40,337 nt of DNA, from IMG/VR virus record IMGVR_UViG_3300017912_003721, positions 1-40,337 of that record, one strand, 5' to 3'. Below, in pieces: positions 28,940-39,301 of this stretch (within the stretch, counting starts at the first letter, position 1; each line of letters starts with the position of its first letter). Below the pieces are notes generated by a model. That model saw only the letters and a list, made by a program, of their open reading frames with translations, ran no database searches and was not told where the DNA came from. The DNA is from a virus (Duplodnaviria; Caudoviricetes). A program made the position numbers and the translations under genes.

Positions 28940-28966
28940 AAAAAGGGGGATATATTTCAATCCCCC
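28940..28966 (-). terminator. rho-independent terminator after the TonB-dependent receptor
   Basis: GGGGGAT-TGAAATAT-ATCCCCC-TTTTT on the minus strand. Confidence 0.85.
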
Positions 28967-28978
28967 AATTTCATCATC

Positions 28979-31729
28979 TTAGAAATTAACAGTTAGTCCT
29001 AAGTTGTAGTATCTTGGTGTACCCAAAAATACTTCAGCATTATGAGCCAAGTGAAGTTTATCACCATAGCCATTGTACTTACTGTTATCAGTAGCATCTT
29101 GAACATATACATTGTCAAGAACATTAAAGACATGACCATGTAAGGTCAAGTCCAAACCAGCAATCTCTGGTAGTTTGTATGATAAGTGTAGGTCGAGTTT
29201 GTTATAGCCAGGAGCTTTCCAAACTTGTGCTCTATCCTCATCACCCGTTACCTCACGAGATTCTGGTGACCAATCAGCGTAATTGTCATCATAGACTTTC
29301 AATAGTCCTTGAATGTTCAATCCTTTGATTGGTTTTAGTGTTAAACCACCAACATAAGCAGTTTGTGGCATATCACCAACTTTTAGATTGTTTAGAGCAT
29401 AAACATATTCGGTTGTCATCTGTCCGATAATCTGACCTTCTTCATTATACTCTTGTTCTAAGTAGTCACCTTTGGCATCTCCATCGAACTTCCAATCACC
29501 TTTACTGAAAGCAAGGTCTACATCAACCATTTCGTGTAGGGCAACTTTAGCCTCTACCTCAACACCAGTATGACTTTGATTTACACCAGTAAGATAAATG
29601 ATGTCTGTGTCACCTGAGTCACCAGCACCAGTTTCTACATTACGAGTTAGGTTTCTATCTTTCCATTGTGTGTTGTAGTAACTACCTTTGATAGCAACAT
29701 TACCACTTCTGTAAGAACCACCAACCTCTGCTGATGTGAACTTCTCATTATCTGGATTGGAAGAAACATTACCATCGTAGTCAATCACATTGTCTAAGAT
29801 TGGTGGTTTCTGAACATATCCAAGATTAGCAAAAGCAGATAATCTGTCATCAAGATTATAAACACCACCACCCTTTACTTGAAAGGTTGTGATGGATGGA
29901 GCTTCTACAAGTTCCTTCTCAACAGAAAAATGGTCTTGATAAGAATATCCAATTGTGGATACCCCACCCATACCATATAGATTTAACTTAGCGATGTCGT
30001 ATTTACCTTGTACGAAAGCACCGAACCAATCAACTGTAGTATTGTTATGGTAGGCAATAATATCACCTAAACCAACTTTCTTACCATCTGGTGCATTGTC
30101 ATCAGCGTAGTCTACATAGTAGTCTCCACCGAGTAAATCACGAACTTCTCTAGCATGTTCGATTCCAGCCGTTCTCCAATCAATACCAACTTGAACTTCT
30201 AAGTCATCGTTGACATCATAGTTTAGTTTGGAAATCAAACCATAGGTATTTTGCCTATTGATTGAATTACGAAGTATACCTGTGGAACGGTTTTCGGTTT
30301 CTGACCATGTTGAATCTACATTAGCAGAGTTCTGAGCAATCTCAGCATTCCAATCCCAAGTCCAAGGTGAAGATGCATACCAAGGTTCTCCCTCAACTGC
30401 TGGAGCTCTTGATACACTTCCGTAAGTACCAGTTCCACCGCCAGAACCACCACTCCAATATAAGATTGAACTTACTTTGATTTGATCGTTTACGTTGTAG
30501 AAGTGGTTAAGGTTAACTAATGGTTTATGAAAGAAGTTTTCTCTTTCGTTTAGCAGACCACCAATCTTTCGATCTTGTAATCCACCACCGAATAATCCAC
30601 CTTCTCCATACATATACCAATACTGTTGACCTTTATACTCAGTATCAACGGGTGCCCAATTTTGGTTAAAGAACCTACCAGCTTCAGTTTCAAACTTCTC
30701 ACCTTCAGCGAAAGCAGTTTCATCGTATCCATCGATATCACCAGCTAACTCTTGTGAATAAGTTGTTATGTTCTGTTTGTATAGGTTCTGTCCATGTCTT
30801 TGTGGAGCACCAATTGCATATAACTCAAACCTTTGGTCATCAGACACAGCGTATGAACCACCTACATAGTAAGCCCACGCATCTGTCCAAGTTCCATCGA
30901 TAAGACCATCACCAGTTTTACGAACAATCGTTCCACTAAGTGCTAACTTATCTCCGATAAGACCAGAGTTATAATTGAGTGTTGTTTTCTTGAAACCAGC
31001 AGCACCGATTTCTTGTTTGACCTTACCACCCTTTTCAAGAGCAGCAGGATCTGTTATGATGTTCATAGTTCCACCAATAGATGGTGTAGCAAGATTAACA
31101 GCTGATAGACCTCTTTGCATCTGAATGGAAGAAGTAGCATCTCCTACTCCATCCCAATTGGACCAATAAACCCATCCGTTCTCCATATCATTCTGAGGAA
31201 CACCGTTTATCATCACTGCAACATTTCTTTGGTTGAAACCACGTACATTGATACGAGCATCACCCGCACCACCACCTTGACCAGTAGCATATACTGATGG
31301 TGTCATATTCAGAGACATTGGAATATCTTGTGAACCAAGACGAATTTCCATCTCTTCTTTAGTCACCGTTGTATAAGCAACAGGTGTTTTTTCATCAGCC
31401 CTAGAAGCCAAGACCTCAAGTGCTGTTAGAGCAACTGCATCAATTTCCAATAGAAAATTTACAGTTCCTACTATGTCATTCACCGTAACAGGATTCGTTA
31501 CTGATGAATACCCTATGAATGAAGCAGTTACATCATAGTCACCAGATTTACCAATATCGATAGTGTACTTACCATTAAGATCAGATACACCACCTTTCTC
31601 AGTTCCCTCGACAACTACATTGGCTCCAGCCAAAGGTTTTGAGTTCACATCTGTCACTACACCCACGATAGTTTGAGCAAACAAACCACTTGTTAGTAGA
31701 ACAGAAGTGATAAGATTACGATAATTCAT
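28979..31729 (-). CDS. TonB-dependent outer-membrane receptor with N-terminal carboxypeptidase-regulatory-like domain
   Basis: Signal peptide MNYRNLITSVLLTSGLFA|Q; GVVTD..KPLAGANV domain; plug INVRGF...MINGVPQND; beta-barrel; C-terminal YNLGLTVNF; GAGGAG RBS. Confidence 0.93.
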   Translation of the reverse strand: MNYRNLITSVLLTSGLFAQTIVGVVTDVNSKPLAGANVVVEGTEKGGVSDLNGKYTIDIGKSGDYDVTASFIGYSSVTNPVTVNDIVGTVNFLLEIDAVALTALEVLASRADEKTPVAYTTVTKEEMEIRLGSQDIPMSLNMTPSVYATGQGGGAGDARINVRGFNQRNVAVMINGVPQNDMENGWVYWSNWDGVGDATSSIQMQRGLSAVNLATPSIGGTMNIITDPAALEKGGKVKQEIGAAGFKKTTLNYNSGLIGDKLALSGTIVRKTGDGLIDGTWTDAWAYYVGGSYAVSDDQRFELYAIGAPQRHGQNLYKQNITTYSQELAGDIDGYDETAFAEGEKFETEAGRFFNQNWAPVDTEYKGQQYWYMYGEGGLFGGGLQDRKIGGLLNERENFFHKPLVNLNHFYNVNDQIKVSSILYWSGGSGGGTGTYGSVSRAPAVEGEPWYASSPWTWDWNAEIAQNSANVDSTWSETENRSTGILRNSINRQNTYGLISKLNYDVNDDLEVQVGIDWRTAGIEHAREVRDLLGGDYYVDYADDNAPDGKKVGLGDIIAYHNNTTVDWFGAFVQGKYDIAKLNLYGMGGVSTIGYSYQDHFSVEKELVEAPSITTFQVKGGGVYNLDDRLSAFANLGYVQKPPILDNVIDYDGNVSSNPDNEKFTSAEVGGSYRSGNVAIKGSYYNTQWKDRNLTRNVETGAGDSGDTDIIYLTGVNQSHTGVEVEAKVALHEMVDVDLAFSKGDWKFDGDAKGDYLEQEYNEEGQIIGQMTTEYVYALNNLKVGDMPQTAYVGGLTLKPIKGLNIQGLLKVYDDNYADWSPESREVTGDEDRAQVWKAPGYNKLDLHLSYKLPEIAGLDLTLHGHVFNVLDNVYVQDATDNSKYNGYGDKLHLAHNAEVFLGTPRYYNLGLTVNF

Positions 31730-31760
31730 AATCGTTCTCCTCGTTGTTCATTAATGAAAA

Positions 31761-31794
31761 GACACATTTTTCTACAGGTGTGTCGTCTGCCTGT
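31761..31794 (-). other. predicted H-type RNA pseudoknot in the TBDR leader
   Basis: ACAGG-CAGAC-GACACA-CCTGT-AGAAAAA-TGTGTC: S1 ACAGG/CCTGT, S2 GACACA/TGTGTC, A-rich loop 3, followed by TTTT. Confidence 0.6.
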
Positions 31795-31801
31795 CCGCTT
31801 T

Positions 31802-33814
31802 TTAGTTTGCATATTCTTGATCGTCATTATCACCATGCATTGGTGGGATTTCACAACTATCGTTGTTACAGAACTTATCGACATCAGCCTCTTCATTCTT
31901 TATCACACCAAAGGATAGTTTACCAAGTTTCTTTACTTGTTTATTGTATTCTTCTTCATCAATAGCTTCATAAGGCATTTGTTTATACGCACCATAATCA
32001 TGTCGTGGTAATAACGAAATACCTTTCAGATGATATTGATAATAATTCAAACATGGAGCAATTTGATCTGCTTCTGTTTGAGGATCAAATGTAACCGTAC
32101 AACTAACTTGGTTGTCTGCCCAATGTCGTTGTAAAAACGCAGCCAATGAGAATTGTTCCCAAATGGAGAGTTCGGAAGCAGTTCTGATTCCCTCTCCCAC
32201 ATCTACGGGCACTTCAACAACCATAGTAGTATCCTCAGAACCAAATGCTGGTTCTACTAAGTATCCAGCTTTTTTCAATGGTTCTAGTAATTCCGAATGT
32301 TTTGATAACCTAATTCTTCTAATATAAAATCTTGATTCAGGATAGTGAAGTCCTGGTGTAGCACCAGCTAATAGAGATACAGTTCCACTTGGTTTTACAC
32401 TCGTAGTTTTGATACTACGAGGCACTGCCATCCAATCTGAATAACTTTTATCCCACGTTTGAATAACATCGTATCCATTGTTCAACCACTGTTGAAACTC
32501 ATCTATTCCTCTGTTGGTAACAAACTGAGCAACACCACTTACTGAACAACCAATTCTTCTGTTTCTCAACATTACTCTATTTGTATCTGACCAATGAGTT
32601 CTACCCAATGTTACTGTTTTAGCATACAGATAAGCATATTTCAAAGTCTTAGCATAATCATCAAAATCATCGTGATTATCAGGAAATGTTTCTACCAAAC
32701 AACATAACTCGTATGATTCTAATGATTGTTCTAAACAAGGATTACCACCCATAACTCTATGGTCTTTGTTATCTCCACCATTTTTCATACGAGAATATTT
32801 TCTCATATTGTCTAACCATGCAAATCCAGGCTCACCATTATCCACAATTCGTTTGGCAGCTTCTGTATAATCCATACCCAATTCAGCGAATATACTATTA
32901 TTACTAGTCCATCCATATGTCTCCCTATGTGGGTTTACTTTATAATTCTTTAGGTCTAAATACTCTTCTGAATGTGGATCTCCAAACACAATCTCTGCTG
33001 TTCTTCTAACATTACCAGCCACGACACACTTACCAATGAGATTCATAATATCCACGATTGTTGTTATTGTGATTGGTTCTCCACTATTCTTTTCCAAAAC
33101 CTGTCTGATTTCTTCATGTACTTCTTCCAATGGTTCATAACCACTAGCAACACCACCAAATCCACTTATCGGTTCACCAGCTGCTCTTATCTTTGAGTAG
33201 TCAAAACTCACTGGTGCTTGACCATGAAAGTAACTTTCTAATAATAACTTCAGAGACTCAACCCAACCTTCACGAGTATCAGGTATTTCGTATACTTGGT
33301 CGTCACGACTTTTTTCAACTCCCTTAATTACTATCTCTCCAGCACCTTTGGTGTCAAATCCTACACCAACACCTAACATACTGGCATCCATAAGGAAACA
33401 GAAAGGTTTAGCATAATCTTCCTTTAGTGTTTTCGTTGATACGAAAGCACAATTGTTTAGGGCGGCATATAATCCTTTGTCTTCTGTAATGGACGTTCCC
33501 ATAGCCCACAGACCACGACCAGGTGGCAAGAACTTCATAGTAAAAATACGCTCATACATTTCTTGAGCTGATCTTTGTGCTTGCCAGGGATTCCACCCTA
33601 ATTGATGTGATTCAATCCAATTCATTTGCATCGTGTAAGTCCCCTCGACCACACGTTGAACAGTTTCCCACCATCGTTCATTCTTTCCATTATCTTTGAT
33701 TCTTGAATAAGTTCTCATATAAACCAACTCACCCAACCCATTGAAACCAAACGGAGCTTTTCTTCTTTTGTACTTATTGATAAAATTCTCCGATAGTGTA
33801 AACTTCTTTTTCAT
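31802..33814 (-). CDS. nrdJ: class II (adenosylcobalamin-dependent) ribonucleotide reductase, monomeric RTPR type
   Basis: RTYSR, PPGRGLW, LNNCAF, GGNPCLEQ, ELCCLVE, TTSVKPSGT, C-terminal CxxxxC; start reassigned to MKKKFT. Confidence 0.93.
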   Translation of the reverse strand: MKKKFTLSENFINKYKRRKAPFGFNGLGELVYMRTYSRIKDNGKNERWWETVQRVVEGTYTMQMNWIESHQLGWNPWQAQRSAQEMYERIFTMKFLPPGRGLWAMGTSITEDKGLYAALNNCAFVSTKTLKEDYAKPFCFLMDASMLGVGVGFDTKGAGEIVIKGVEKSRDDQVYEIPDTREGWVESLKLLLESYFHGQAPVSFDYSKIRAAGEPISGFGGVASGYEPLEEVHEEIRQVLEKNSGEPITITTIVDIMNLIGKCVVAGNVRRTAEIVFGDPHSEEYLDLKNYKVNPHRETYGWTSNNSIFAELGMDYTEAAKRIVDNGEPGFAWLDNMRKYSRMKNGGDNKDHRVMGGNPCLEQSLESYELCCLVETFPDNHDDFDDYAKTLKYAYLYAKTVTLGRTHWSDTNRVMLRNRRIGCSVSGVAQFVTNRGIDEFQQWLNNGYDVIQTWDKSYSDWMAVPRSIKTTSVKPSGTVSLLAGATPGLHYPESRFYIRRIRLSKHSELLEPLKKAGYLVEPAFGSEDTTMVVEVPVDVGEGIRTASELSIWEQFSLAAFLQRHWADNQVSCTVTFDPQTEADQIAPCLNYYQYHLKGISLLPRHDYGAYKQMPYEAIDEEEYNKQVKKLGKLSFGVIKNEEADVDKFCNNDSCEIPPMHGDNDDQEYAN

Positions 33815-33886
33815 GTATTTTGCCTCTGAAACGTTCTTGTTATGAATTATTACCAAATATAAATATAATATATACGAGCACTATTC

Positions 33887-38429: not shown

Positions 38430-38488
38430 AAAAACCGACAAGGGTAGCAGGCAAAAGGAGGAAAACCTACCACCCTTTTTATGTCGGT
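38430..38488 (-). other. long bulged RNA hairpin with an anti-Shine-Dalgarno loop and 3' U-tract (terminator-like or regulatory RNA)
   Basis: ACCGACA-TAAAA-AGGGTGGTAGGT-TTTCCTCCTTTT-GCCTGCTACCCT-TGTCGGT-TTTT; three G-U pairs form only on the minus strand. Confidence 0.7.
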
Positions 38489-38493
38489 GTTAA

Positions 38494-39240
38494 TTAAGAG
38501 TTAAATAACTTATCGAAGTCATCCTCTACATTAGAAGAAGCTTGAGTGGAAACCATTTCTGGTTCTTTCTCTGTAGTTTCTTCAGCAGCAGATGGATTTA
38601 GAAAGTTCTGTAAATGACCTTTCAACTCATCGAATGACGGCTCTGTGTAGAGTTCAATAATATTTGGTTGATTCTTTAGTAAGTTATCACTCAAATTTGC
38701 ATCTTCTACAAGTGCTGTTTGATTTGGTTTGACACGAATAGTTGTCTTCCCATATTGATTACCAGCTTCAGCAGCAGTTTGTCTCTCCACAACGATGTCT
38801 CTACCAGTCATTACATCTGATATATCACCATAGTCGGGATCAGCAATAATAGCAAGAAGTTCTTGATAAACTGTCTTACCAAATCCCCACCATTTTACAC
38901 CTTCGGATTCTTCTCCACGAACTATGACAGGAGCAAATGTCCTCATCTTAGGTTCGATTCTCTTACCTTGAATCCATTCATCTTTATCGCCAGAAGCTTT
39001 TAACTTATCAGCAAATTGTTGAACAGGATCAGGTCGTCCAAATGAAAGTGGTGAAAGTACTGTCTTCTTAGGAACAAGACTATAGTGAAAAAATAATTCT
39101 ACGAAAGGATTATCTTTGTTGTCAATATATGGCGTGATTCTAATCTGTGACTTTCCTGGTTGTGGTTTCCAAAAAGCGTTAGCTGTTGAGGAAGTATTCT
39201 GTAACTGATTCAAGCGTGATTTAATCGCATTAATATCCAT
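38494..39240 (-). CDS. single-stranded DNA-binding protein (gp32-like)
   Basis: FWKP, IRI.P, PF, F+GK.VY, DISD...GRD, acidic tail EDDFDKLFNS; lies upstream of recA; start at MDINAI by RBS spacing. Confidence 0.85.
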   Translation of the reverse strand: MDINAIKSRLNQLQNTSSTANAFWKPQPGKSQIRITPYIDNKDNPFVELFFHYSLVPKKTVLSPLSFGRPDPVQQFADKLKASGDKDEWIQGKRIEPKMRTFAPVIVRGEESEGVKWWGFGKTVYQELLAIIADPDYGDISDVMTGRDIVVERQTAAEAGNQYGKTTIRVKPNQTALVEDANLSDNLLKNQPNIIELYTEPSFDELKGHLQNFLNPSAAEETTEKEPEMVSTQASSNVEDDFDKLFNS

Positions 39241-39301
39241 TATCATTCTCCATGTTTATGTTGTTATTTATAGTTTATCTACTATAAATATTATATATAA
39301 T

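Follow-up and report, generated by a model that had tools for sequence, protein, structure and literature searches.

Does the short G+C-rich patch between a ribonucleotide reductase gene and a TonB-dependent receptor gene of a phage contain a functional RNA, and what would such an RNA do for the receptor? The window, meaning the whole stretch of 40,337 nucleotides analysed here, is a 40-kb virus record representing a fragment of a T4-like phage. Its replication block lies on the minus strand and comprises genes for gp32, a RecA-like protein, a 5'-3' exonuclease, a DnaB-like helicase, a methylase, nrdJ, the receptor, DNA polymerase B, the clamp and the clamp loader. In the leader of the receptor gene, a first-pass annotation had noticed a compact H-type pseudoknot and proposed it as a novel riboswitch or regulatory RNA. 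The neighbouring features are as follows.

28979..31729, minus strand: TonB-dependent receptor of 916 residues (CarboxypepD_reg and Plug), the constant partner gene of the motif
31802..33856, minus strand: nrdJ, B12-dependent ribonucleotide reductase (TIGR02505 above cut-off), the usual yet replaceable upstream gene
28945..28966, minus strand: terminator-like hairpin with a U-run, 3' of the receptor gene

Given this hairpin after the receptor and a sigma70-like site predicted ahead of the polymerase gene, the transcription unit probably ends with the receptor gene. The cellular relatives of the receptor share 55-75% identity with it and are labelled mostly as Marinimicrobia (SAR406), which makes SAR406 the likely host of the phage. 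Neither a solved structure nor a named family was found for the receptor barrel. Elsewhere in the window, a G+C-rich inverted repeat at 38435-38500 (minus strand) separates the gp32-like and RecA-like genes and was not called a terminator. In addition, the motif ATATTTAT recurs on the coding strand, at minus-strand positions 39291, 34593, 33866, 24605, 21502, 18888, 11619 and 1760, and several of these copies fall between genes; a close variant is found 5' of the knot where the receptor stands alone (L126, L291, L298, L303 and L371). We regard it as a candidate phage promoter.

The annotated pseudoknot sequence and its two interleaved stems are present exactly as described, on the minus strand, which the annotation had left unstated. 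The predicted H-type pseudoknot spans 34 nt (31761-31794), with stems of 5 and 6 pairs and loops of 5, 0 and 7 nt, and is composed, together with its flanks, of the following parts.

31795..31798, minus strand: GCGG flank, common but optional, immediately 5' of P1 in 97 of 176 distinct leaders
31790..31794, minus strand: P1 5' strand, 5 nt; covariation at pairs 2 and 3, and an outer pair that fails to form in 20 of 68 cores
31785..31789, minus strand: loop 1, 5 nt, with a near-invariant initial C and A (42 of 43 homology-found cores)
31779..31784, minus strand: P2 5' strand, 6 nt, abutting the P1 3' strand without a loop 2
31774..31778, minus strand: P1 3' strand
31767..31773, minus strand: loop 3, 7 nt, the last five being A; 7 nt in 77 of 81 cores and 9 nt in 4
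31761..31766, minus strand: P2 3' strand; double-sided change at three of the six P2 pairs, with 13 parsimony steps at one
31742..31760, minus strand: A/C-rich spacer ahead of the ribosome site; a weak hairpin lies at 31747-31758
31737..31741, minus strand: Shine-Dalgarno (SD) sequence AGGAG of the receptor, whose ATG is at 31729

The nrdJ stop codon occupies 31804-31802, and P1 begins 7 nt after it, the GCGG flank 3 nt after it. P2 ends 19 nt before AGGAG, close to the 18 nt originally estimated, and 31 nt before the ATG. The patch was rightly described as G+C-rich, at 53% compared to 34% for the window. An in-frame TAG lies inside the motif, and nrdJ and the receptor share one reading frame in the window.

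A descriptor for H-type knots of 5 and 6 pairs found 12 matches on both strands of the window, and 25 dinucleotide shuffles gave a mean of 4.2 matches per strand, none with at least three G/C in each stem. Since so generic a descriptor yields about four matches per strand by chance, the window sequence by itself is only suggestive. The stems have predicted energies of -4.4 and -4.7 kcal/mol. The ViennaRNA fold of the sense strand gave z = +0.38, which is uninformative because this program omits pseudoknots. The reverse complement can also form an H-type fold, but an antisense reading was rejected as the position of the motif tracks the sense gene; moreover, an inner P2 pair on the sense strand is G-U in three cores and A-C in none, which also speaks against it. 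On the plus strand, the antisense of P1 followed by a T-run (31774-31794) was called terminator-like; this predicted site could halt antisense transcription into nrdJ.

Comparison across loci settled whether the fold is real. Protein homology recovered 80 viral loci, 66 of which include the leader and all 66 of these the motif; the remaining 14 end inside the receptor gene. When a host protein served as the seed instead, the search gave 73 loci, some of them on contigs of the first set; 71 carry the motif, one is cut and one is altered (L479, 970-1003), with loop 3 reduced to four A ahead of a start region that looks intact. Among 68 distinct cores, 96.7% of the cells pair and six of the 11 pairs change on both sides, giving a covariation score that none of 500 shuffles reached; slid registers of the same alignment reach a pairing of only 18-54%. 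As relatedness can inflate covariation, changes were also counted on a receptor tree of 124 non-identical loci (64-100% identity). The left and right letters changed 5 and 5, and 6 and 6 times at two P1 pairs, and 13 and 13, 15 and 13, and 7 and 6 times at three P2 pairs, counts that may be inflated where leader and gene have recombined. The annotation had named a lack of covariation as what would speak against the knot; instead, comparative sequence analysis found covariation in both stems, in support of the predicted pseudoknot.

Conservation goes beyond pairing. In 43 homology-found cores, 14 of the 34 positions are invariant and three further ones vary once; these cores were excised by a pattern that requires the invariant letters, which caught 137 of the 138 leader-bearing loci. 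Loop 1 has 5 nt in 80 of 81 cores. The invariant letters gather at the junction and in the loops, whereas the ends vary. Neither the four invariant pairs nor the junction A-U contributes a covariation signal of its own; the junction A-U, which shows no compensatory change and reads A-C in one core, is a putative pair. We judge the leader element to be a real, selected and phage-specific structured RNA.

Scans with an RNA pattern revealed a single gene context. In viral contigs, 116 of the 120 matches listed precede the receptor (107 by tblastn, nine with a cut or short N-terminus), and the other four have no start codon behind them. In metagenomes, 78 of the 120 listed matches keep both stems, 76 of which precede the receptor and two of which are cut just past the ATG; the stem test excludes the remaining 42. 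A looser pattern, with four of 64 parts scanned, gave 18 two-stem matches among 120 listed, all ahead of the receptor. Thus no other gene context was found among the 120 viral, 120 metagenome and 120 looser-pattern matches listed. In IMG/VR, we estimated about 370 stretches with the motif, in agreement with the 372 that have the receptor.

The upstream side is far less constant. In 212 of 262 records nrdJ is the neighbour, at a gap of 5-52 nt; in others its place is taken by a gene of glutamine synthetase-like, membrane or peroxiredoxin-like type (named from translations), with gaps of up to 189 nt, and in L370 a tRNA-Thr(TGT) at 206-281 ends 16 nt before P1. Overall, the distance from the upstream stop ranges from 5 to 189 nt, whereas the motif ends 24-39 nt before the ATG in 167 leaders, at 28-31 nt in 136 of them and never below 24. 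This fixed spacing, together with the variable upstream neighbour and gap, assigns the element to the 5' region of the receptor. GGAG follows the motif by 13-28 nt in the 167 leaders, and the spacers are 57% A, 21% U and 6% G. In three leaders (L015, L140 and L322), a peroxiredoxin-like frame, named from its translation, enters the motif and ends at its TAG, so that translating ribosomes would open the knot there. A linear element of the TTCACATAC type lies 9-31 nt before P1 in 101 of 176 phage leaders and is absent from the window; it is present in the host leaders L209, L230 and L233 as well, and may be a site of cleavage or protein contact that came from the host leader.

These contexts bear on the proposal that the element acts as a conditional terminator, or as a readthrough or frameshift signal for nrdJ. 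In its favour, the window has four U directly after P2, a knot that begins 7 nt past the nrdJ stop, and one reading frame for nrdJ and the receptor. However, four U follow P2 in just 11 of 176 distinct leaders, and the minus strand was not called a terminator here. The conserved U-run after a G+C hairpin that defines an intrinsic terminator was not found, and the terminator idea fails on this point. Recoding of nrdJ fails on the variable spacing (5 to 52 nt) and the replaceable neighbours, other genes or a tRNA taking the place of nrdJ; the in-frame TAG within the motif also argues against it. With other genes or a tRNA upstream in many loci, a link to nrdJ or B12 is not supported either. In addition, contigs from RNA libraries of two studies join the motif to the receptor start (run X2, 31605-31798; run X4, 31560-31788) and to the nrdJ end (X2, 31761-31876; X6, 31763-32065). 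Such contigs indicate presence in these libraries and are no proof of transcription, of one transcript or of RNA ends, yet their passage from the nrdJ end through the motif into the receptor start fits poorly with termination. Altogether, we consider either role highly improbable. Contig depth is higher for the receptor than for nrdJ in runs X1 and X2 and not in X4 and X9; it was set aside as evidence because it cannot rank genes and includes relatives. The end of an X2 contig at 31798 was not accepted as an RNA end.

Is the element a host sequence that travelled with the gene? Among 74 loci from cellular genomes, only L203 and L206 carry the motif, and both are likely phage contigs in genome bins, since nrdJ lies upstream and their proteins fall among phage ones. 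The motif was not found in 65 host leaders (seven further loci have almost no leader), and a covariance model, with which 46 candidates per genome were scored in 151 genomes of the phylum, reached no more than 19.9 bits. A loose pattern matched 116 of 201 genomes, and the 33 matches within fetched host loci all failed the two-stem test. Rfam found tRNAs only on 11 host loci, and no match beside a 30%-identical gut homologue. In a FastTree of 107 rows, a branch with a support of 100 parts the phage proteins from 63 of 64 host rows. On the basis of this split and of the absence from the host leaders and genomes searched, the knot was likely gained once, in the phage lineage, as far as an unrooted tree can tell. 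One Marinimicrobia-binned receptor (L208) is nested among phages on a long branch of the FastTree and has no knot, a possible back-transfer, or a long-branch or broken-frame artefact.

The host loci have features of their own. Eight of 35 host leaders have folds with z < -2, which touches on the idea that a 5' hairpin was replaced by the knot. A conserved leader of another kind, ~170 nt before the ATG and comprising hairpins and a sigma70-like promoter, is shared by one host clade (L232, L238, L242, L244, L246, L257, L263, L264 and L266), with no Rfam match in L238, and a AACCCTCGGA-like word lies 40-90 nt before the start in the host leaders L221, L225, L228, L250, L255 and L260 and their relatives. 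The host neighbours of the receptor include SRAP (34 of 74 loci), S1/P1 nuclease (13), deoxynucleoside kinase (11) and phosphodiesterase (10), which weakly suggest a nucleic-acid-derived cargo; no biotin, thiamine or B12 gene was found among the 30 host neighbour clusters scanned.

On comparison, the element would work like leader pseudoknots of known kinds but is a member of none tested. Searching the whole window against Rfam 15 gave no match at the gathering score, and a search of 31600-31950 at E<=10 gave three chance matches, none on the motif. The preQ1-I riboswitch shares a size of ~34 nt, the H-type topology, a 5-pair P1 and an A-rich loop 3 (PMC11625349). However, it has UC or AC with a free specificity C before the P1 3' strand, where all cores of the motif have a paired CA and no loop 2, and its loop 1 opens with U, whereas that of the motif opens with C and A and has no conserved U (PMC11625349). 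The preQ1-I platform, with the SD in P2 or a terminator, is also missing, as P2 of the motif forms six canonical pairs and the SD lies 13-28 nt beyond. SAM-II uses conserved U residues for major-groove triples with SAM (PMC13541005), for which loop 1 has no counterpart. The NAD+-II class, also named by the annotation, has a consensus marked by layered A.G-C triples. The annotation, which did not recognise the preQ1-I or SAM-II consensus, was correct in this respect. The in-vitro-selected biotin aptamer (PDB 1F27) has an A-rich second loop. It is also a small H-type knot whose loop 1 holds C8 and A9, but A9 can be changed without loss of binding, whereas the matching A of the motif is kept in 42 of 43 cores (PMC12710915). 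That aptamer is artificial, and the 30 host neighbour clusters contained no biotin genes. We treat the likeness as a lead only.

The invariant letters at the junction and in the loops, set against variable ends, are what a new riboswitch aptamer would display: a small ligand at the stem junction, weakly suggested to be a nucleoside- or nucleotide-type compound, would stabilise the knot and, with no need for a classical expression platform, raise receptor output by way of mRNA stability or access of the ribosome. A junction A-U that lacks covariation and reads A-C in one core fits such a site, as does the fact that the regulated gene encodes a transporter. Precedents exist in guanidine-III, where a ligand-promoted pseudoknot blocks RNase E (PMC12186494), and in one SAM-II that works at a distance and on stability (PMC9373788). 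In a specific version, which we regard as unlikely though worth naming, the junction A and the C and A of loop 1 would form a nucleoside or nucleotide pocket in a phage-private riboswitch of preQ1-I size, whose ligand-locked fold would block RNase E.

Predicted SD accessibility gives this reading a mixed answer. Opening of P2 is predicted to bury the SD in the window (0.48 to 0.01) and in 22 other leaders, as accessibility falls by more than 0.3 in 23 of 167; the mean shifts from 0.59 to 0.50. The other 144 have no predicted SD switch, so a classical translational switch was rejected as the general mechanism. Riboswitches normally occur in cells, and the motif was found in none of the 65 host leaders or 151 host genomes. 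A single gene context in all pattern scans, the lack of an Rfam match, and canonical stems that may fold unaided are further points against a ligand. Of the earlier proposal of a novel riboswitch or regulatory RNA, the supported part is a conserved, covarying cis structure tied to the receptor, whereas the riboswitch part appears unlikely.

The tight ATG spacing would also fit a role at the ribosome. As a translation enhancer, the knot would dock ribosomal protein S1 or the 30S platform beside the spacer and the strong SD, winning ribosomes for the receptor message. The long spacers oftener hold small hairpins (nine of 11, against 4.1 in shuffled sequences; the rows are related), which would restore the distance. 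S1 is known to bind H-type pseudoknots, namely a SELEX ligand and those of tmRNA, rpsO and the tisB standby site, and the motif likewise lies upstream of a translation start; the SELEX ligand has an L2 of 0 and an L3 of 7 nt, as here (PMC7708055). Full-length S1 is encoded in four of five host genomes. However, L1 is 3 nt in the SELEX ligand compared to 5 nt in the motif, S1 favours less-folded pseudoknots (PMC7038950), and in E. coli it is dispensable where the SD is strong and the ribosome site open (PMC3858243), as is mostly the case here. We therefore rate ribosome docking, too, as rather unlikely.

A partner encoded by the phage would suit the phage-only range, and invariant loops would suit contact with a protein. 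Such an operator protein would nucleate on the knot, spread over the A-rich spacer and close the ribosome site. The T4, T2 and RB69 gene 32 operator has this layout, a phage H-type pseudoknot followed by unstructured A+U-rich RNA before an A-rich ribosome site (PMC3014915), and is not modelled in Rfam (PMC10690425, section 2.6). Unstructured A+U-rich RNA up to the ribosome site was also found in the motif leaders, in the similar setting of a T4-like replication module, and a gp32-like protein is encoded in the window. However, the gene 32 operator resides on the mRNA of its own binding protein, whereas the motif always stands before a captured TonB-receptor gene, ending 24-39 nt before the ATG, and the gp32 leader of the window has no descriptor match. 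Moreover, neither the window nor 1.15 Mb of phage loci yielded a second copy, and no candidate repressor was identified. Control by a phage protein is accordingly doubtful, and we place it somewhat below the ligand and S1 readings.

The reading we favour, while holding it at less than even probability, is that the knot serves as a constitutive coaxial obstacle to RNase E, keeping the receptor mRNA alive and so yielding more receptor. H-type pseudoknots, through coaxial pairing, impede the scanning of RNase E from 5'-monophosphate ends, which bypasses an orthogonal stem-loop; the size of the obstacle matters and its composition little (PMC9943677). Guanidine-III and the model pseudoknots VPK and BWYV, which are such obstacles, share with the motif a compact coaxial leader knot, of 11 pairs in VPK as here (PMC9943677, PMC12186494); unlike them, the motif is phage-only, has one gene context and matches no Rfam riboswitch. 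Both elements of such an obstacle are present, namely predicted coaxial pairing in the leader (11 pairs) and an enzyme of the RNase E/G family, encoded by 56 of the 61 genomes examined from the likely host phylum. By contrast, a 5'-3' exonuclease block of the xrRNA kind was rejected because its enzyme, RNase J, is absent from the 61 genomes searched: the C-terminal domain PF17770 was found in 0 of 61, in a search that detected controls in seven of 14.

We propose that the 34-nt leader would fold in vivo into 11 stacked pairs just beyond the ribosome footprint. Upstream cleavage or processing would leave a 5'-monophosphate end, and RNase E scanning from this end would be slowed by the coaxial stems, with the invariant loop letters (C and A of loop 1, five A of loop 3) possibly forming triples that lock the fold. 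The receptor part of a polycistronic message, or one behind a processed tRNA, would thereby be protected from RNase E, leading to more receptor during infection; in L370, processing of the tRNA-Thr would make a fresh 5' end near P1.

Several observations argue for the RNase E obstacle: compensatory changes in both stems with a position fixed to the receptor start, a likely host phylum with RNase E/G and without RNase J, and the lack of a conserved SD-hiding alternative fold (23 of 167), which fits an always-folded element. RNWUU, which we take to be an RNase E-like cleavage consensus, occurs within 30 nt 5' of the knot in 152 of 180 leaders, where shuffles gave 75, a weak support in that this excess comes from related sequences and partly from the last codons of nrdJ. 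The 30 nt upstream in the window itself have no such site. On the other side, 11 coaxial pairs in a pseudoknot are only a modest impediment to RNase E (PMC9943677). The 14 invariant positions of 34, the near-fixed loops and the often broken outer P1 pair look rather like a recognised surface; the narrow ATG spacing equally suits a ribosome-linked role, and the host itself is assigned only from receptor relatives. A bound partner would enlarge the obstacle, so the partner readings and the RNase E obstacle are not exclusive. Stabilisation of mRNA, which the annotation had listed as one option, is thus our best, though tentative, explanation.

A literature search found no description of the motif. 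A SusC-like gene in marine megaphages is mentioned, without a riboswitch, in the available text of PMC9723777, and the records of those megaphages match 17-26% of the receptor protein at ~27% identity. The IMG/VR survey of PMC10690425 lists no TonB-receptor leader in the portion consulted, its table covering genes within 25 bp; the motif may be present, unannotated, among the 8,495 candidate alignments of that survey. The accessible part of bioRxiv 10.64898/2026.09.15.751765 likewise makes no mention of it.

Altogether, the element represents an uncatalogued family of structured RNA with strong covariation, confined to abundant marine phages (~370 IMG/VR stretches). Its size of 34 nt permits synthesis and direct probing, and the ligand, S1 and RNase E models are each testable. 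As a stabiliser, the knot would represent a natural RNase E obstacle dedicated to this purpose; as a riboswitch, it would found a new class without known cellular members. Should the phage-private version of the latter be true, the phage would tune a stolen outer-membrane importer to the metabolite pool of the infected cell with a device that has no cellular counterpart, and the ligand would name the cargo of an uncharacterised SAR406 transporter family. In each case, the phage has added its own post-transcriptional control to a captured transporter gene, which suggests that the output of this importer matters in infection.
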